From Bacteroidales bacterium (GTDB lineage Bacteria > Bacteroidota > Bacteroidia > Bacteroidales > F082), in contig JAFOBJ010000085.1 in NCBI GenBank assembly GCA_017381865.1, positions 5,613 to 69,612 of the forward strand: DNA of 64,000 nucleotides, written 5' to 3'. The translations under genes were made by a program, and so were the position numbers. The notes under the pieces are model-generated. The model was not told where the DNA came from and did not search any database. It worked only from the letters and a program-made list of their open reading frames with translations. Of this stretch, positions 1-53,104 are shown piece after piece (position 1 is the first letter of the stretch; every line of letters starts with the position of its first letter).

Positions 1-108
1 ATGGAAGCTGCCGCATTAGTAAATTCAAATGAGGCAAAGATCGCTCAACTTCAAGCTGATGTTGAATGCGCATCTGGTTGTGGAATATGTGGTTACGGTA
101 GTAACTAA
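1..108 (+). CDS. Small Cys-rich peptide, 35 aa as seen (candidate RiPP precursor; could be truncated by the window edge)
   Basis: ATG at 1 to TAA at 106-108 gives MEAAALVNSNEAKIAQLQADVECASGCGICGYGSN. Leader-like N-terminal part, then a Gly-rich CX3CX2C tail. Co-oriented with and directly upstream of a B12-binding radical SAM gene. Confidence 0.4.
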   Translation: MEAAALVNSNEAKIAQLQADVECASGCGICGYGSN

Positions 109-125
109 TATTCATTCAACACTTG

Positions 126-153
126 AGCCTGCTTAATTTGGGTTAAGCAGGCT
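126..153 (+). promoter_or_regulatory. Intercistronic stem-loop between the peptide ORF and the radical SAM gene
   Basis: Perfect 11-bp arms AGCCTGCTTAA / TTAAGCAGGCT with a 6-nt loop. Only a weak T tract follows, so an attenuator or RNA-stabilising hairpin is more likely than a full terminator. Confidence 0.4.
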
Positions 154-189
154 TCCATTTATCAAGACCTATTGAATTTTATAGACATT

Positions 190-1992
190 ATGCAATATAT
201 ATATAACCCACAAGAAAATACCAAAGCAGATGCGTTACTTGTTCAATTATCTGCTAATCCTTATTTTGACATGCTTTCTTCTTATAGCATTGGGCAATTA
301 GGATTATATTATTTAGCAGAATACGCAGATAGATTTGGTTACATTGCAAAGGTTAAATACTACAACTCATTTGATGAAGTATCTAAATTAATTCCTCAGA
401 TAACAGAAAAGATTTCTTGTCGTATACTTGGATTTTATGTAGATAGTGACAATATTTGGGCATTAAGGACATTGATACCTTTATTACAACAAAGTTGCCC
501 CAATATTAACATCATTTTAGGAGGTCCTCAAGTAACAGGTGATCCATATGGCACACTACGATTAATACCAAATGTTACCTGCGGTGTTATTGGAGAAGGC
601 GAAATTCCTTTTCTAAAATTATTACAAGCAAACTCATATAGCGATGACATATTAAGCAATATTAATGGTCTGATATATTACAATTCATATAATGAACTTA
701 TCATAACAAAATCTCAAGAACAAAATCCTAATATTGATGAATTTGGATATCCTAAGAGAGAGAAATACTGTTTAGATTCAGGAAAAGTTACTTTCTCCCA
801 ATTAATAACAGGAAGAGGATGCATGGGACGTTGTGCTTTCTGTTTTGAAGGTAGTATAGAACATACAAATTTACGGATACGCAATATAGATTCATGTCTA
901 GAAGAAATTGACTATTTAGTAGAAACCTACGGAGCTAAATACATTAATATAGTAGATGACACCTTCATTTTAAATAGGAAACGAACCGAGGAGTTCTGTA
1001 ATAGGCTTATAAATAAATATAACGGCAATATTAAATGGTATTGCGAAGCGAGAGCAGATATATTGTCTAAAAACATTGATATTCTGCCATTATTAAAGAA
1101 ATCTGGATTGGTCAAGATACAGTTAGGAGGTGAATCTGGATGCCAGGAAATTCTGGATGCATATAAAAAAGGGGTAACTATAAAACAGTTAGAGTTTGTT
1201 ACGAAAAAAATAATGGAGGCTGGCATTCCGTATGTCTATGCCAACTTCATAATAGGAGGAGCATTTGAGACAGAATCAACATTCAACAAAACATTAGACT
1301 TCGCTAAAAAGTTAATGCGTATCGCACCTGGTCATGTTGAAGTAAGTTCATCTGTTTTTACTCCAACACCAGGTTCTCCAATGTATAATAATCCAGAAGA
1401 GTATGGCTTGAAAATTATAGATAAGAAATGTATAAGAGGAGCAAGTTGTTCCTTTGTATTTGCAGAAACTGAGCAACTGAATCAATATAAGATTTGGCAA
1501 TTACGAAATAAGTTTAACAATGAAATAAAAAATGAATACACTTCATTATTGGATGAAATATCCATTGAGCAGTTAAAAAATATATTCTATCTATCAACAA
1601 AATTCTCTATAGATACCCCATGGTCAAATCTGTTAAAAAGTAAGGCTCATTACAGAAATTATTTTGAACCTTTAGTTAGAGGGGGGTTCTACTCTTTTAG
1701 CGAAATACCTATCGACGATATATTTTCTAGTATTCCTTTAAGAACCACACACCTGAGTTCTGATGGCGTTGCATTTTATAGGATTAAACGTTCTGGAGAA
1801 TATATAAAGAATAGTAATTTAGCAAATGCTTTAATTACATTATCAGCTGGAAAATTGACATTCCTAGATATTTTTAACATGATAAAATCAAATCCTACCT
1901 TTATTACAAAAAATAGCAATATTCTTGATGAATGCATATCAATATATAGAGAATTCGAACAAGAATTTTCAGTTATTTGGAAAAAGATCTAA
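190..1992 (+). CDS. B12-binding-domain radical SAM enzyme (class B rSAM-like)
   Basis: VIGEGEIPF (the GEGE motif of cobalamin-binding rSAM N-domains), then GRGCMGRCAFCFEG (CX3CX2C). The ORF opens at TTG 172; the first ATG is at 190. No SPASM-type C-terminal Cys cluster is visible. Confidence 0.85.
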   Translation: MQYIYNPQENTKADALLVQLSANPYFDMLSSYSIGQLGLYYLAEYADRFGYIAKVKYYNSFDEVSKLIPQITEKISCRILGFYVDSDNIWALRTLIPLLQQSCPNINIILGGPQVTGDPYGTLRLIPNVTCGVIGEGEIPFLKLLQANSYSDDILSNINGLIYYNSYNELIITKSQEQNPNIDEFGYPKREKYCLDSGKVTFSQLITGRGCMGRCAFCFEGSIEHTNLRIRNIDSCLEEIDYLVETYGAKYINIVDDTFILNRKRTEEFCNRLINKYNGNIKWYCEARADILSKNIDILPLLKKSGLVKIQLGGESGCQEILDAYKKGVTIKQLEFVTKKIMEAGIPYVYANFIIGGAFETESTFNKTLDFAKKLMRIAPGHVEVSSSVFTPTPGSPMYNNPEEYGLKIIDKKCIRGASCSFVFAETEQLNQYKIWQLRNKFNNEIKNEYTSLLDEISIEQLKNIFYLSTKFSIDTPWSNLLKSKAHYRNYFEPLVRGGFYSFSEIPIDDIFSSIPLRTTHLSSDGVAFYRIKRSGEYIKNSNLANALITLSAGKLTFLDIFNMIKSNPTFITKNSNILDECISIYREFEQEFSVIWKKI

Positions 1993-2016
1993 ATATTAAG
2001 ACATAGCATTAAACTT

Positions 2017-2937
2017 ATGCAATATACCGACACTTTACATATAGATAAAGATACTCTTTGGAATGAGGACATTCTCAGGATGATACAAGAATTTACGCAA
2101 AAAACAGCTTCTAATACTGCTTTTAGTTTTTGGCGTGAAGCAGATTTTTGGGAATATTTGGCAATCGGTCTATCATTTTTGGCGATTGTGTTAGCTGTTG
2201 TTACTGCAATTTTACAGTGGAAAACTGAAAGAAATACGAGAATGTCTTTAAGTATGAAAACCCAGGTTTATGAATCTATATTCAAGTCCTTACTCAATGA
2301 TCTTTACAGAATACAATGTGATATTATATCGTTACAAATTATTTTAATAGAAAATGATTTTCGGTCATACCCAACAGATCGGTTTTTAAAAAATATGATG
2401 ATTAGATTTGATGATTCTAATCTTGATTCATTTTTAGTTGTATTTAATAAAAAAAATAAAAGTAAGGTAGAAGAGCATTATCTTAAAATGCAAGAAATCA
2501 ATCGGCTAACTCAGAATTATAATGTTAGTCTTGAAATGTTAATGGAACATTTAAAAGATCCATCAATAGATAAAAACACTAAATTATTTGATTTTTCAGT
2601 CATAAATAATAACATAAGTTTTCTAAGTCAAAAAATACTTCAAACTGCCGTATTTATATACGGAAAGAATTCTGATGTTACTACTTCTCTATTGCATTAT
2701 GTTAAAAAAGCATTAGAATATTATCAGGAAGGTGAAATTAATACAACTTCTATGGATTGTTATATAAATCTTAAAAAATACGAAAAAATTATTATCCCAA
2801 TTCTTAATAACTATTTCGAACATACTAATATTAAATCCACAAAAGATATAATGTTATTGTCTTATAGACTAATATCAAACGAAATAGATATGAAAGATTC
2901 AGATGTAATAAACAGCTTAATAGATTTTAAGGTATAA
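2017..2937 (+). CDS. Hypothetical single-pass membrane protein
   Basis: 306-aa ORF starting 24 nt after the rSAM stop. One hydrophobic helix, FWEYLAIGLSFLAIVLAVVTAILQW. No family recognised. Confidence 0.55.
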   Translation: MQYTDTLHIDKDTLWNEDILRMIQEFTQKTASNTAFSFWREADFWEYLAIGLSFLAIVLAVVTAILQWKTERNTRMSLSMKTQVYESIFKSLLNDLYRIQCDIISLQIILIENDFRSYPTDRFLKNMMIRFDDSNLDSFLVVFNKKNKSKVEEHYLKMQEINRLTQNYNVSLEMLMEHLKDPSIDKNTKLFDFSVINNNISFLSQKILQTAVFIYGKNSDVTTSLLHYVKKALEYYQEGEINTTSMDCYINLKKYEKIIIPILNNYFEHTNIKSTKDIMLLSYRLISNEIDMKDSDVINSLIDFKV

Positions 2938-3066: not shown

Positions 3067-4116
3067 ATGGACATAAATTTCTTAAATGCGATTTTGAACA
3101 CTCATAGCGTTTCTGGTTTTGAGAATAAAGCAGGAAAACTTTTTCTAGATTATATCGAACAATATGTTGATTCCACTGACACAGATATTATAGGAAACAG
3201 CTATGCTAATATTGGCAATATGTCAGAAGACAATTCAACTCTGAAAATTCTATTAGAAGCACATATAGATGAGATTGGATTTCAAGTTATATATATTGAT
3301 GACAGTGGTTTTATCTACATTCGTAAAAATGGAGGTATTGATATACAATGTATTCCCGGTTCACAAATAGTTATACAAACATCATCTGGTGAAGAATTAT
3401 TGGGAGTTATTGGAAAGAAGCCAATACATTTGACAGCTCCAGAAGAGAGAAACAAAAATATTGAATTGCATACTTTGTGGATTGATACTGGTTTATCTCC
3501 TGACGAAGTGAAGAAAAAGATTTCCATCGGAGATGTTGTCGCTTGGCAGTCTAATGTGATACATTTGTCAGATAAAAGAATCTCATCTAAAGGTTTAGAC
3601 GACAAAGTCGGTGTATATATAATAAGTCAAGTCTTAAAAAAATTATCGACAAATAAGGTTTCTCATGTTCAAGTATGCGGTATTGCATCTGTTCAAGAGG
3701 AAGTTGGTCATCGAGGAGCAATGGTTTGTTGTCACAAATTAAATCCAGATATAGCAATTAGTATAGATGTTGACTTTGCAACAGATGTTCCTGACTGTCC
3801 TAAAACTAAATTTGGTGATATATTATTAGGGAACGGTGTCGTGATTCATAGAAGTATTGATAATACCAGCTCAATAGCATTATTAGCCGAAAAAATAGCA
3901 CAGGAGAATAATATAAAATACCAGATTTCAGCACGACCAACCTCTGTAGGAGGAACTAATGCAATGGTACTTCAACAAACAAAAGGCGGTATAAGAACAA
4001 TTAGCTTAGGAATACCATGCAGATATATGCACACACCTGTTGAATTGTGTGATTTGGATGATATAAAATCTGCAATTGAATTGTTATATCACTTCATTAT
4101 AGAAATCAACAATTAA
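3067..4116 (+). CDS. M42 family aminopeptidase (FrvX/CelM-like)
   Basis: Motifs LEAHIDEIGF, KGLDDKVG and VQEEVGHRGA and about 350 aa fit the M42 glutamyl aminopeptidase family. GTG at 3052 is an alternative start. Confidence 0.8.
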   Translation: MDINFLNAILNTHSVSGFENKAGKLFLDYIEQYVDSTDTDIIGNSYANIGNMSEDNSTLKILLEAHIDEIGFQVIYIDDSGFIYIRKNGGIDIQCIPGSQIVIQTSSGEELLGVIGKKPIHLTAPEERNKNIELHTLWIDTGLSPDEVKKKISIGDVVAWQSNVIHLSDKRISSKGLDDKVGVYIISQVLKKLSTNKVSHVQVCGIASVQEEVGHRGAMVCCHKLNPDIAISIDVDFATDVPDCPKTKFGDILLGNGVVIHRSIDNTSSIALLAEKIAQENNIKYQISARPTSVGGTNAMVLQQTKGGIRTISLGIPCRYMHTPVELCDLDDIKSAIELLYHFIIEINN

Positions 4117-9309: not shown

Positions 9310-9894
9310 ATGTCTATTCAAAAAATAAAAGAATTATATAAAGATCCGAAATACACTTCAACGATTGATGTTGGAATGTTTATCGCGTTGATATTCAGCT
9401 TCCATTTCTTGTATTTAGGATGGCAAGCTGTTGGTTATTTCCCTATTGGAAATCTTATCGCCAAGCTTTTTGATTCAGCATCAACATTATTATTCAATCA
9501 AAGTTGTTGGGTATTGGAACATATTTTCAATGTCGACATTGTAACTCACAATCATGTCATCGGCGTGATAAACTGCAACGACAAATATTCTTTAATCAAC
9601 GTTGCTCCTGAATGCACGAGCTTGAAACAATGGCTTCACTGGCTTTTCCTCATGTTGATTTTCCCTGGTCCTTGGAAACATAAAGCTTGGTATATTCCAC
9701 TCGGACTCGTCATCATTGAATTTATCAATGTAGTGAGAGTCGTAGGAATAACATTATGTATGATACCTTTTCCTGACAAATTTGACTTCTTCCACGATTA
9801 TTTCTTTAAAACATTATTCTACTTTTTCATATTTATAATGTGGGTAGTCTGGGTAGAGAAGTTTTTACATAAAAAAGAAAAAATTAAAAAATAA
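9310..9894 (+). CDS. Polytopic membrane protein, possibly exosortase/archaeosortase family (XrtF-like)
   Basis: 194 aa with about 5 TM helices. Spaced Cys (APECTSL), Arg (NVVRVVG) and His (FFHDYF) resemble the exosortase catalytic triad layout. No partner gene or obvious substrates nearby. Confidence 0.35.
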   Translation: MSIQKIKELYKDPKYTSTIDVGMFIALIFSFHFLYLGWQAVGYFPIGNLIAKLFDSASTLLFNQSCWVLEHIFNVDIVTHNHVIGVINCNDKYSLINVAPECTSLKQWLHWLFLMLIFPGPWKHKAWYIPLGLVIIEFINVVRVVGITLCMIPFPDKFDFFHDYFFKTLFYFFIFIMWVVWVEKFLHKKEKIKK

Positions 9895-9899
9895 ATACT

Positions 9900-10985
9900 A
9901 TGGATTCAAACAGCATCATTTTTGTCCTCGATGCCGGCGGCACAGGATTCAAATTTTCAGCAGTACAAAACTATAAAGAAATAATAGAAGCTTTCACTAT
10001 CAAGACAGCTTCCGACACTTTAGAAGAACAACTTAACAAGATTATCGAAGGATTCCGTCACACTGAAGAATTATGCGGCAGCAAGCCAGCAGCTATCAGT
10101 TTCTGTTTCCCTGGTCCAGCCGACTATCCAAATGGCATCATCTGCGACCTCGCCAACCTTCCACTTTTCAGAGGTGGCGTAGCACTTAAAGACATGCTTG
10201 AAAACGAATTCAAGGTTCCAGTTTATATCAACAACGACGGTGACTTATTCGCATACGGCGAGGCATTGGGCGGCGTGCTTCCAGAAATCAACGCTATGCT
10301 TGAAAAGGCTGGCAATCCTAAGAGATATAAAAACCTCGTCGGTTTGACACTCGGCACAGGTTTCGGCGGCGGCGTGGTACTCAACGGCCACTTGTTACAA
10401 GGCGACAACTCAGCAGGCGCAGAAGTTTGGTGCATGAGAAACATACTTTATCCACAGACAAGCGCAGAAGACTCAATCAGTATCAGAGGCGTACGACGCG
10501 TTTACGCTCGCGAGGCTGGCATCGAATTCAACGAAGCTCCACAGCCTTTCGACATCTACGAAATAGCTTTAGGAAATAAAGAAGGTAACAAAGAAGCAGC
10601 ACTCAAAGCTTGGGACGAATTCGCAACAGTATTAGCCGACATCATCGCTAACATCGCTACAGTGATAGACGGCATCGTGGTTCTCGGTGGAGGTCTCTCA
10701 GGGGCATCAAAGATTTTCATGCCTAAAGTAGTGGAATTGCTCAACACAGCATATCCTGGCTTAGACGGAAACAAAATCCCAAGAATGGAGATTTCTGCAT
10801 TCAACCTCGATGATGAAGAAGGTCAAAAGGCATTCACAGCAACATCAGGCAAGATGATAAAAGTTCCATTCTCCGATAAAGAAGTATGGTACGACCCATC
10901 AAAGAAAATCGGTATCACAGCAACAAAACTCGGAACATCGTCGGCAGTCTGCATCGGAGCGTATGCTTTTGCGATGAATCAATAA
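9900..10985 (+). CDS. ROK/BadF-type sugar kinase (glucokinase-like)
   Basis: LDAGGTGFKF phosphate-1 motif and LTLGTGFGGGVVLNG; 361 aa. Confidence 0.7.
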   Translation: MDSNSIIFVLDAGGTGFKFSAVQNYKEIIEAFTIKTASDTLEEQLNKIIEGFRHTEELCGSKPAAISFCFPGPADYPNGIICDLANLPLFRGGVALKDMLENEFKVPVYINNDGDLFAYGEALGGVLPEINAMLEKAGNPKRYKNLVGLTLGTGFGGGVVLNGHLLQGDNSAGAEVWCMRNILYPQTSAEDSISIRGVRRVYAREAGIEFNEAPQPFDIYEIALGNKEGNKEAALKAWDEFATVLADIIANIATVIDGIVVLGGGLSGASKIFMPKVVELLNTAYPGLDGNKIPRMEISAFNLDDEEGQKAFTATSGKMIKVPFSDKEVWYDPSKKIGITATKLGTSSAVCIGAYAFAMNQ

Positions 10986-10986
10986 A

Positions 10987-11026
10987 GTCTATGAGTCTAT
11001 AAGCCTATGAGTAAATAAGCTATAAA
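10987..11026 (+). repeat. 8-nt-period degenerate array (GTCTATGA GTCTATAA GCCTATGA GTAAATAA GCTATAAA)
   Basis: Read directly. Intergenic, between the ROK kinase stop and the next ATG. Confidence 0.85.
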
Positions 11027-11041
11027 TAAAGAAAGAGTAAT

Positions 11042-11923
11042 ATGAGGAAGATAATTTTTGTTATGACATTGTTTTTATTAAGTCATTGCGGCATTATGGC
11101 GCAAGGATTTAGTCCATATCATACAAATGTTATCAAATATAATGGTTATTCTTATCCTTATTTCCCAGGTTGTGTCGAATGGGAAGACATGAATTATTCG
11201 CAACGTTTAGAATCTCTTCAGATTCCATTCGACACATTGGAAAATATCTCTACATCAAGACTGTTAGAAACTTGTCTTTATTATCCTTTCAACATAAACA
11301 TCTCGCTTTCCGATGATTATCTTACAGGTTTTGAAAAAGTAAGAAATAATTTTAACGGATACGCAGAATTGTTCCTGCGCAGCAATTTCATTCAAGAATT
11401 GATTGATTTATACGATTCAAGAGATGTATTTTTTATTGAAGAAATTAATGACGATTATGACTGCGGTCAGTACTCTTTTGATTTTATGTTTTTGGAACTA
11501 TTTATACTTGAAAATATAGACCATGCGACTGAGACGCAGCTTAATCAAATTGTTACATTAGTCAAAACAAAAAAAGCTCAACAAGAATCTCTTGAAGAAT
11601 ATTATAGCAACAAAGGAATAGCTGATAAAATCTTAAACAAAGCAGAAACATTAGGAATTGAAAGCAAAACTATCGAATTCGACATCAAGCTATCGCCAAA
11701 TCCTTTGACAAACAATCTTACTGTCAGTTATTCGTTACCGCTTGAACAACAAGCCATTCTAACAATCTACGATTTTAATGGAAAAATAATAAAAAGAGAA
11801 AGACTTTATAGCGAAGAAAAAACATTGACTTTAAATCTTGAGAATCTCCATTTTGGGACTTATATCTACACCATCAATTGCGGAGATTTTTCAAAAACAG
11901 GAAAGCTGATAAAAAAATTATGA
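11042..11923 (+). CDS. Secreted protein with T9SS C-terminal sorting domain
   Basis: Signal peptide MRKIIFVMTLFLLSHCGIMAQ. C-terminus LSPNPLTNNLTVSY...GTYIYTINCGDFSKTGKLIKK is typical of type A T9SS CTDs. Confidence 0.7.
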   Translation: MRKIIFVMTLFLLSHCGIMAQGFSPYHTNVIKYNGYSYPYFPGCVEWEDMNYSQRLESLQIPFDTLENISTSRLLETCLYYPFNINISLSDDYLTGFEKVRNNFNGYAELFLRSNFIQELIDLYDSRDVFFIEEINDDYDCGQYSFDFMFLELFILENIDHATETQLNQIVTLVKTKKAQQESLEEYYSNKGIADKILNKAETLGIESKTIEFDIKLSPNPLTNNLTVSYSLPLEQQAILTIYDFNGKIIKRERLYSEEKTLTLNLENLHFGTYIYTINCGDFSKTGKLIKKL

Positions 11924-52156: not shown

Positions 52157-53104
52157 TCATAATAATTTGATTATCATACTATTAGTATTATCTATAACAT
52201 TATTGTCTATTGTTGACAAATATATCTGTGTAGTGAGTTCTGAGTTATGTCCCAGGCTGTCGCTAATCACTGAAATCGGTATGTTTTTTCCTTTTGCGAT
52301 GCTTGCCCAAGAATGGCGGGCTACATACATCGTCAATGAATTTTGCAAGGAAATATTCTCACCTAACTTTTTCAAATGATAGTTTACCTTCTGACTGGCT
52401 CGCAGATATTGTTTCCTTTCGTCAACATTACAGTGCGAATCTATAATCGGCAATAAATACTGCGAATTACTGGTGTCATATTTGTCTACAATATCTTGCA
52501 TACATTTTTCCCACCTTATAAATAATTGTTGTTTCGTTTTGCGCCGATGGTACGATAAGATGCCTTGTTTTAAATCTTTTTTCTGCAAATATGCCATATC
52601 TACGAAAGACATACCTCTGGTGTAGAACGAAAATAAAAACATATTACGAGCAAAATCTAATGACGAATCTGACGATAAATCAATGGATTTGATAACTCTG
52701 ATGGTATTTAATGACACAGAACGTTTGATGGTTTTGTCAATGCCGGTATAAACTTTTTTGAATGGAAATTGTTGTTTTGTAAGATTATAGTTTACAGCTT
52801 TATTGTAAATGGCTCTGAAAGTTCTCATGTAAAAAGAAGAACTGTTGAGGCAGATGCCGTTGTCTTTCAGGTAAGATTCGTACGACATTATCATTTGCGC
52901 ATTTAGTTCTGCAAATGTTAAATCTTTGTCATTTCTGAAACGCTTGAAACTGTTTGATGTTGATTGGTATGTTTCTGATGTACGGTTTTTTCCCGATTTT
53001 TTTAAATCGAAAATGATATTGTCCATAAATTCAAATACTGAAATCTGATTGTCTGGATAATTTTCATTTTCATGACATACATTTTGTTTTTTAGAAATTT
53101 TCAA
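52157..53104 (-). CDS. Tyrosine-type site-specific recombinase (integrase family), candidate invertase
   Basis: SAM-like N-domain (YESYLKDNGICLNSSSFYMRTFRAIYNKAV). Catalytic region ARHSWAS...LGHNSELTTQIYL (R, HxxR, H, Y). The ORF opens at TTG 53104; the first ATG is at 53026. Confidence 0.85.
   Translation of the reverse strand: MKISKKQNVCHENENYPDNQISVFEFMDNIIFDLKKSGKNRTSETYQSTSNSFKRFRNDKDLTFAELNAQMIMSYESYLKDNGICLNSSSFYMRTFRAIYNKAVNYNLTKQQFPFKKVYTGIDKTIKRSVSLNTIRVIKSIDLSSDSSLDFARNMFLFSFYTRGMSFVDMAYLQKKDLKQGILSYHRRKTKQQLFIRWEKCMQDIVDKYDTSNSQYLLPIIDSHCNVDERKQYLRASQKVNYHLKKLGENISLQNSLTMYVARHSWASIAKGKNIPISVISDSLGHNSELTTQIYLSTIDNNVIDNTNSMIIKLL

Follow-up and report, generated by a model that had tools for sequence, protein, structure and literature searches.

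A conserved operon of two radical SAM enzymes and a short cysteine-rich precursor points to a new family of modified ribosomal peptide in Bacteroidales

In ranthipeptide and sactipeptide systems, a short cysteine-rich precursor adjoins a radical S-adenosylmethionine (SAM) enzyme with a seven-cysteine SPASM domain. In the B12-dependent methylase pathways for peptides that are made on ribosomes and modified after translation (RiPPs), such as those of polytheonamide (PoyB/C), bottromycin and aminopyruvatide (ApyD) and the family TIGR03975, an enzyme with a B12 domain and a radical SAM core is encoded beside the precursor. The chryseobasin cluster of Chryseobacterium comprises ChrA, the MNIO ChrH with ChrI, ChrE and the M42 peptidase ChrP, whose role there is putative, and its thioaminals (S-C-alpha links) and S-methyl group are made by the O2- and SAM-dependent MNIO (PMC10214503). 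Clusters that pair radical SAM and YcaO enzymes, the Itf cluster and BGC6-8, have been described from Bacteroidales (PMC10352776). In this study, we analysed the first genes of a 64,000-nucleotide stretch from a Bacteroidales bacterium (assembly GCA_017381865.1, contig JAFOBJ010000085.1, positions 5,613 to 69,612 of the forward strand), hereafter the window. They belong to an operon in which the gene of a small cysteine-rich peptide stands between those of a SPASM radical SAM enzyme and a B12-binding radical SAM enzyme. By enzyme family the operon is closest to the ranthipeptide and sactipeptide systems and the B12-dependent RiPP methylases, and by peptide motif and peptidase it is closest to chryseobasin.

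The initial annotation, made from the letters of the window alone, had proposed that the window edge cuts through a candidate RiPP locus. The missing upstream DNA was supplied by public metagenome contigs, 12 of which encode the exact 600-aa B12-radical SAM enzyme of the window; ten of them (L001-L010) were examined, and all are collinear with the window and extend upstream of its position 1. The window edge indeed falls inside the precursor gene of a four- to five-gene operon with the order SPASM radical SAM enzyme, 42-aa precursor, hairpin, B12-radical SAM enzyme, an optional 306-aa protein and M42 aminopeptidase, the SPASM gene lying just outside. A genome scan with one genome per species gave 25 loci with homologues of the B12 enzyme, and a scan with a profile of the SPASM enzyme added five metagenome loci. 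The block recurs in about 15 distinct loci (10 genome loci and the five further metagenome loci, with the M42 gene in four of the latter five). In the genome scan, every locus with a B12 enzyme of 68% identity or more shows the full block order, the sole exception being a contig that ends early. The hosts are an Alistipes metagenome-assembled genome (MAG), two uncultured Bacteroides MAGs, Bacteroides hominis Tbg-374 (a complete genome), two Paludibacteraceae MAGs, Lentimicrobiaceae SIG104 (the closest, 86%), a Bacteroidales MAG, Dysgonomonas and one MAG labelled Oscillospiraceae. Genes outside the block differ from locus to locus. Chance falls far short of explaining this arrangement, since the loci all keep the same order of open reading frame (ORF), hairpin and enzyme. 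The best reading of these data is a conserved two-radical-SAM operon for a new family of radical-SAM-modified ribosomal peptide, and not a new category of system; that the locus belongs to a RiPP is very likely.

The small ORF at positions 1-108 of the window, like all features of the operon on the plus strand, encodes MEAAALVNSNEAKIAQLQADVECASGCGICGYGSN with its stop at 106-108, and comprises the last 35 codons and stop of the precursor gene. On the identical contigs the full gene (L001 9791-9919) encodes a 42-aa peptide, MLNNEMLMEAAALVNSNEAKIAQLQADVECASGCGICGYGSN, whose true ATG lies 21 nt upstream of the window and is itself preceded, four codons earlier, by a stop codon. The ATG at window position 1 corresponds to Met8 of this ORF and is not the true start, because several orthologues have Leu at that residue and the first ATG is conserved. 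The annotation was therefore right to see a genuine gene for a cysteine-rich peptide, although its length is 42 aa and not 35, and the fear that the ORF might be only the tail of a longer protein was dispelled by the upstream sequence. In an alignment of 11 orthologous precursor genes, the variable sites are distributed 9/2/32 over the three codon positions, so the small ORF is translated and under purifying selection as a protein. It is a complete, conserved protein-coding gene. The 42-aa orthologues are 81-98% identical to each other (about 60% for that of Dysgonomonas) and their enzymes 68-93%, with the leader and core parts of the precursor equally conserved. Every tier-1 peptide contains C[G/S][I/M]CGYG followed by two more residues. 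The first Cys is missing in Dysgonomonas, so the CX3CX2C spacing is not conserved, and the invariant core reads GCxxCGYGx[N/D]. From these sequences we infer that the leader spans about 29 aa and that the core closes with GCxxCGYGx[N/D]. No NCBIfam or Pfam family matches the 42-aa peptide.

The gene just outside the window (L001 8606-9736) encodes a 376-aa radical SAM/SPASM enzyme and ends 54 nt upstream of the peptide gene. Its radical SAM motif CNLNCIYC occupies residues 13-20 (C13, C17 and C20; CX3CX2C) and its SPASM signature is complete (CX12GX4C ... CX2CX5CX2C ... C), the seven SPASM Cys (C239, C257, C290, C293, C299, C302 and C321) being invariant across 19 homologues. The same count of seven has been reported for CteB, Tte1186 and QhpD (PMC10352776). 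The annotation had seen no SPASM-type cluster and held a sactipeptide- or ranthipeptide-type synthase to be less likely; this statement is overturned by the upstream gene, and was an artefact of the window edge because the SPASM gene lies just beyond it. The top NCBIfam matches of the enzyme are PapB, a Nif11-like peptide maturase, a CXXX-repeat maturase and the SCIFF maturase, all curated cut-offs examined being missed (PapB NF047865, 137 bits versus 340; TIGR04115, 106 versus 350; TIGR03974, 89 versus 425). Its best match in the PDB is CteB (5WGG, E 2e-23), to which it aligns over CteB residues 100-438. In sequence, the enzyme is closest to the thioether-forming maturases CteB and PapB.

Besides the pairing of a short precursor with a seven-Cys SPASM enzyme, the operon shares with the ranthipeptide and sactipeptide systems an enzyme family that, at 27-37% identity, serves CXXX-repeat peptides. 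Unlike CteB/SCIFF, PapB/freyrasin and TIGR04115, it falls below the family cut-offs and its SPASM enzyme carries no N-terminal leader-binding domain (RiPP recognition element, RRE). Its core is short and has two invariant Cys but no CX3D or CXXX repeats, a second, B12-dependent radical SAM enzyme is present, and an M42 peptidase stands in place of a PCAT or other known leader protease.

The B12-binding (class B) radical SAM enzyme of 600 aa is encoded at 190-1992, from an ATG at 190, the start given on every contig (with a TTG at 172 as the alternative). The annotation's description of an enzyme of roughly 600 aa with the motifs GEGE and CMGRCAFC was confirmed by Pfam models that both score above cut-off: PF02310 (36.1 bits, cut-off 32.1) covers the cobalamin-binding domain with GEGE at 295-621 (residues 42-150 of a 606-aa reading), and PF04055 (65.9 bits, cut-off 29.5) covers the radical SAM core with CMGRCAFC (CX3CX2C) at 805-1305 (residues 212-378). 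Homologues of the enzyme numbered 403, and C211, C215 and C218 of the radical SAM motif are invariant. The enzyme reaches no specific NCBIfam family; its best matches are HpnJ (115 bits), BchE, PhpK and a ladderane lipid enzyme, and the RiPP C-methyltransferase families are missed by a wide margin (ApyD NF050148, 88.2 bits versus 750; TIGR03975, 67.6 versus 281.85). An AlphaFold model (pLDDT 84.7) retrieved MgmA, OxsB, CysS, AprD4 and TokK by Foldseek at E of about 1e-16, so that the predicted structure has the general class B fold. The closest of these matches is MgmA, a methylase of a protein residue; the structural relatives OxsB, AprD4, BchE and ThnL are not methylases.

The last 100 residues of the B12 enzyme (1687-1989) are conserved throughout the family. 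Modelled alone (pLDDT 89.6), this C-terminal domain is predicted to form three strands and then three helices, and its Foldseek matches, at non-significant E values, are dominated by leader-recognition domains of RiPP enzymes, with TbiB1, a FusB1-type lasso B1 protein (6jx3), TbtB, NisB, MibB, ThcOx and TglI among the top ones. The resemblance lends moderate support to the view that the B12 enzyme binds a leader peptide, and the predicted RRE-like fold fits the annotation's proposal that the small peptide is the substrate of the enzyme. This domain, if its predicted fold holds, would be a further likeness to the B12-dependent RiPP methylase pathways, and ApyD and TIGR03975 are among the weaker matches of the enzyme. 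The annotation's analogy with proteusin and bottromycin pathways found no specific support: in contrast to the PoyB/C, bottromycin and ApyD systems, the precursor has no NHLP- or Nif11-type leader, the enzyme reaches none of the RiPP C-methyltransferase families and is paired with a SPASM enzyme, and methylation would be a putative activity. Neither a bottromycin-type follower peptide nor a YcaO, an epimerase or another gene of such pathways was found within the block.

The hairpin between the precursor and the B12 enzyme (126-153) is present as the annotation described it, beginning 18 nt past the peptide stop with an 11-bp Watson-Crick stem (11-12 bp in the folded form) and a weak T tract. 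Folding gave a free energy of -22.5 kcal/mol with a z score of -2.8 (100-200), and a z score of -4.2 for the 70 nt after the stop. A hairpin follows the precursor stop in 21 of the 21 loci tested, with unrelated stem sequences and free energies of -15 to -30. A hairpin behind the precursor gene is thus a general feature. A terminator scanner did not call that of the window's lineage a canonical terminator, its T tract being weak. It is likely a partial terminator or 3' stabiliser that sets the ratio of precursor to enzyme.

Between the SPASM stop and the peptide ATG lies an invariant 30-nt non-coding element, GGAGAAGCCGATAGCCRTAAAGTGGAGGC (L001 9739-9768), about 45-75 nt upstream of window position 1 and ending about 23 nt before the peptide ATG. 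It stands at the same place in L011-L019 and L024 and is identical even in Dysgonomonas, whose proteins are about 60% identical. Two Shine-Dalgarno-like GGAG(G) boxes are contained in it. Rfam returned no match and RNAalifold no convincing structure, with one possibly covarying pair that may stem from a single event in one clade. As to its function, it may mark a site of processing or of binding, or act as a signal for translation. A 12-codon mini-ORF in the same interval, MEKPIAIKWRHN, was rejected, as its ATG is replaced by ACG, CCG or TCG in most loci.

Downstream of the B12 enzyme, the annotation had placed a single-pass membrane protein after 24 nt and an M42 aminopeptidase some 130 nt further on, and both are present. 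The M42 gene (3067-4116, TET-type, Pfam E 5e-77) begins 129 nt after the preceding ORF and encodes all ligand motifs of the family (AHIDE, DDK, QEEVG, IDVD and YMHTP). It follows the B12 enzyme in 13 of the 14 tier-1 loci that extend far enough, and also in the more distant locus L036, and pairwise M42 identities track those of the enzymes (r = 0.81 and 0.74). A mere resident housekeeping neighbour is unlikely, because the flanks past the M42 gene differ and the gene is kept at 49% enzyme identity. M42 genes (34-36% identical) also flank distant SPASM enzymes at L058 532-1539, L089 4803-5813 and L092 6629-7639, where the peptides are of the CXXX-repeat type or end in ..SCGCTGDCGSNWM[Q/R]S, which suggests a general link between M42 peptidases and cysteine-rich peptides of radical SAM enzymes. 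TET-type M42 enzymes are cytoplasmic exopeptidases. A 2023 review of RiPP leader proteases does not mention M42; the peptidase here is a candidate leader-trimming enzyme.

The 306-aa protein (2017-2937) starts 24 nt after the B12 enzyme gene and has a single membrane anchor, seen as one hydrophobic segment, and matches no known family or domain. It is found in about 60% of the loci and, being missing from about 40%, is regarded as an accessory part. Its 56 close homologues are all at least 59% identical, have no Pfam domain and occur only in this cluster type. A profile search added about 130 remote, uncharacterised relatives in other contexts, likewise free of Pfam domains, one of which adjoins an acyl-carrier-like gene. 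Immunity, export aid or regulation are guesses at its function.

In the likeness to chryseobasin, both systems belong to the phylum Bacteroidota, ChrA ends in CPACG[M/L]G (CxxCGxG) and the peptide here carries the same pattern, as GC[G/S]xCG[Y/L/A]G, near its C-terminus, and both clusters include an M42 peptidase, the likeness to ChrP being one of family only. Bonds of the kinds found in chryseobasin could be formed in the absence of oxygen by an enzyme of the sactisynthase type together with a radical SAM methylase. The motif match between the two peptides amounts to four fixed residues only; ChrA has about 72 aa and a signal or lipoprotein-type N-terminus, whereas the precursor here has an unrelated 29-aa acidic leader. 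Unlike the chryseobasin cluster, the operon has no MNIO (DUF692), DUF1772 or epimerase among the called genes of L001-L010 or in domain scans. It is conceivable, though improbable, that the operon is an oxygen-independent counterpart of the chryseobasin pathway in strictly anaerobic gut Bacteroidales, with the same CxxCGxG motif, the same type of M42 peptidase and two radical SAM enzymes replacing ChrHI; the SPASM enzyme would then make S-C-alpha (thioaminal) cross-links and the B12 enzyme would supply the methyl group. If this were true, one peptide scaffold would be served by paired aerobic and anaerobic enzymes, in the manner of AcsF/BchE or HemF/HemN, and an M42 peptidase would receive its first assigned role in peptide maturation.

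In all B12 enzyme homologues of at least 49% identity, the cysteine-rich peptide adjoins the enzyme, and L036, with enzymes 49-51% identical, retains the SPASM enzyme, a 48-aa peptide, the B12 enzyme and the M42 gene. A second SPASM enzyme lies directly upstream in L036 (3898-4998), and a MiaB-family methylthiotransferase and a YcaO gene follow right after its M42 gene (9370-11161); the latter two may be extra tailoring genes or unrelated neighbours. The co-occurrence of the enzyme with small cysteine-rich ORFs that the annotation proposed to examine is thus constant at 49% identity and above, but homologues 39-46% identical have an unrelated ORF of about 85 aa instead. These homologues (L020-L030) form a conserved trio, as in L020 (5744-6001, 6004-7770 and 5404-5754), in which the gene of the enzyme directly adjoins the ~85-aa ORF (..DGHFMPLVFADL.. 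or ..KDGHFMPLVFADL.., with DDIxF at the C-terminus) and has that of a CxxCxxCC (PF03692) protein of about 105 aa beside it. The trio is probably a separate peptide- or protein-modifying system.

On the side of the SPASM enzyme, homologues 34-48% identical have peptides of 43-46 aa with a similar leader and a core [G/H]CxxC[G/T/A]x[G/N]CxGIVG[D/G]; they are often paired with a YcaO gene and lack the B12 enzyme and M42. The YcaO-paired members, with peptides of 44-46 aa, a related leader and the core GCxxCGLGCxGIVG, compare with the published Bacteroidales clusters, but the Itf cluster and BGC6-8 have double-glycine (GG) leaders, PCAT transporters and other cores, and their description mentions neither a B12 enzyme nor M42 (PMC10352776). 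The Tyr of the core is changed to Ala or Leu in related clusters, and more distant relatives of the peptide carry CxxC[T/A]NC, unlike CxxCGxG. At 27-35% identity of the SPASM enzyme, the family grades into systems with CXXX-repeat peptides and into a type that is abundant in the human gut (..NSCGCSGDCGSNWMQS). From these similarities in sequence, the window operon is one branch of a large set of cysteine-rich peptides and SPASM enzymes, set apart by its B12 enzyme and M42 peptidase and by a truncated core in which two Cys are invariant. Literature searches with the exact peptide strings and with combinations of RiPP, cobalamin, radical SAM and Bacteroidota gave no description of the operon, an earlier bioinformatic listing being possible.

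Upstream of the SPASM gene, where the annotation had advised looking for further precursor copies, a transporter and a leader peptidase, no precursor copy, transporter or endoprotease is conserved. The genes at this place vary by locus and encode Sel1, lipoprotein, small membrane, SH3 and ThiF-like proteins. A tyrosine recombinase lies upstream of the operon in several loci (L001 3267-4172, L003, L014/15 and L018), a 63%-identical paralogue of it is found within the window (52160-53041, minus strand), and L001 and L003 differ by a four-gene indel between integrase and operon. The DNA that holds the operon seems to be variable and possibly mobile. Two families of small membrane proteins recur directly upstream of the SPASM and peptide genes in clusters of both the B12 and the YcaO type: one has two to three transmembrane helices and a C-terminal CxxC..CxxC zinc ribbon (L011 779-1135, L018 4161-4556, L016 4114-4443 and L039 3561-3923), and the other has about 105-115 aa and is multi-pass (L013 4170-4517 and L036 3536-3856). 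Both are immunity-like in size and absent from the window's lineage, where their place is taken by a lipoprotein and a Sel1-repeat protein. In two loci, L012 (2372-4332) and L018 (2049-4125), a ThiF/E1-like protein of 411-477 aa, paired with an uncharacterised one of 213-237 aa, recurs upstream of the operon.

Taken together, the parts of the operon suggest the following course of maturation. The acidic helical leader (LxxEAxALVNSNEAxIAQL) would dock on the enzymes, including the RRE-like domain, and the SPASM enzyme would abstract a hydrogen and join at least one core Cys of GCxxCGYG to a carbon of a neighbouring residue, yielding a thioether of the sactipeptide or ranthipeptide type for which the conserved C-terminal Asn/Asp could act as acceptor. 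Next, the B12 enzyme would methylate an unactivated carbon or, less likely, perform other cobalamin-dependent radical chemistry, and the cytoplasmic M42 aminopeptidase would trim the leader from the N-terminus until halted by the modified core. The hairpin would keep precursor mRNA in excess over enzyme mRNA. The product may be an antimicrobial, a signal or a metal ligand. For the statement as a whole, a RiPP locus with thioether cross-linking followed by methylation and M42 leader trimming, we estimate a probability of about 65%.

Several observations weigh against this scheme. The SPASM enzyme lacks the N-terminal RRE of CteB, and the RRE-like domain of the B12 enzyme, which matches stand-alone RREs with template modelling scores of 0.6-0.7 over about 85 residues, does so at non-significant Foldseek E values of 0.6-2; the C-terminal 110-161 aa of the enzyme gave no PqqD/RRE by Pfam (E up to 10) or by a profile search of PDB sequences. 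Neither a transporter nor an endoprotease nor a clear immunity gene is conserved in the block. In L045 the downstream M42 gene is missing, and two M42 sub-clades do not fully match the trees of the enzymes. B12 enzyme homologues 39-46% identical occur in another context, with neither a SPASM enzyme nor a cysteine-rich peptide. The proposed chemistry is drawn throughout from family resemblance and, as both enzymes score well short of the curated cut-offs, what they catalyse may not be what their named relatives do.

Alternatively, the peptide could be consumed as a scaffold for a small molecule or a cofactor, much as in the mycofactocin and pyrroloquinoline quinone (PQQ) pathways, with the two radical SAM enzymes modifying the C-terminal CGYGxN and the aminopeptidase digesting the rest, so that a small intracellular product is freed and not a secreted peptide. 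In those two pathways, the first step is carried out by SPASM radical SAM enzymes on C-terminal motifs that include a Tyr. The invariant stretch of the core here is short and C-terminal, the sole protease is a cytoplasmic exopeptidase, and the block has no exporter, GG-type leader, endoprotease or conserved immunity gene. However, the Tyr is swapped for Ala or Leu in related clusters, no conserved tailoring or redox genes typical of cofactor pathways are present, and the block occurs patchily in variable, integrase-associated regions, which is more in keeping with an accessory trait than with a cofactor; in many loci, there are also recurrent small membrane proteins upstream whose size is immunity-like. 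We regard a scaffold of this kind as unlikely. A similarly low probability is given to the SPASM enzyme alone modifying the peptide, with the B12 enzyme acting on a lipid, a sugar or another protein and merely co-transcribed. It would account for the non-peptide enzymes among the best whole-protein NCBIfam matches (HpnJ, BchE, PhpK and the ladderane lipid enzyme), for the B12 homologues of 39-46% identity that have no SPASM enzyme or cysteine-rich peptide, and for the related SPASM/peptide pairs in which YcaO takes the place of the B12 enzyme. It is at odds with the strict synteny of B12 enzyme and peptide at 49% identity and above and with the conservation of the RRE-like C-terminal domain in the B12 enzyme family; moreover, the distant homologues, too, follow immediately on a small conserved ORF, an arrangement suggestive of substrates that are peptides or proteins throughout, and the best structural match, MgmA, methylates a protein residue.

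The annotation had also considered that the peptide might simply bind metal. An unmodified metal-binding peptide (CX3CX2C), its position beside the enzymes having no functional meaning, would agree with the three core Cys of the window's peptide, but it is highly improbable: the spacing is lost with the first Cys in Dysgonomonas, the leader is conserved as much as the core, the gene order is kept across families despite different flanks, and the enzymes are of peptide-maturase families. The two-radical-SAM RiPP operon is the preferred reading.

To our knowledge, very few modified peptides have been characterised from gut Bacteroidales, though these bacteria dominate the human and animal gut. 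The present analysis defines a compact, widespread operon of four to five genes with a cultured and fully sequenced carrier, Bacteroides hominis Tbg-374. The recurrence of M42 genes beside clusters of cysteine-rich peptides and SPASM enzymes provides a testable candidate for leader removal, and the likeness to chryseobasin in motif and peptidase offers a concrete and cheap hypothesis on the product. Because both radical SAM enzymes fall outside every curated family, new chemistry on the 13-residue core is likely.

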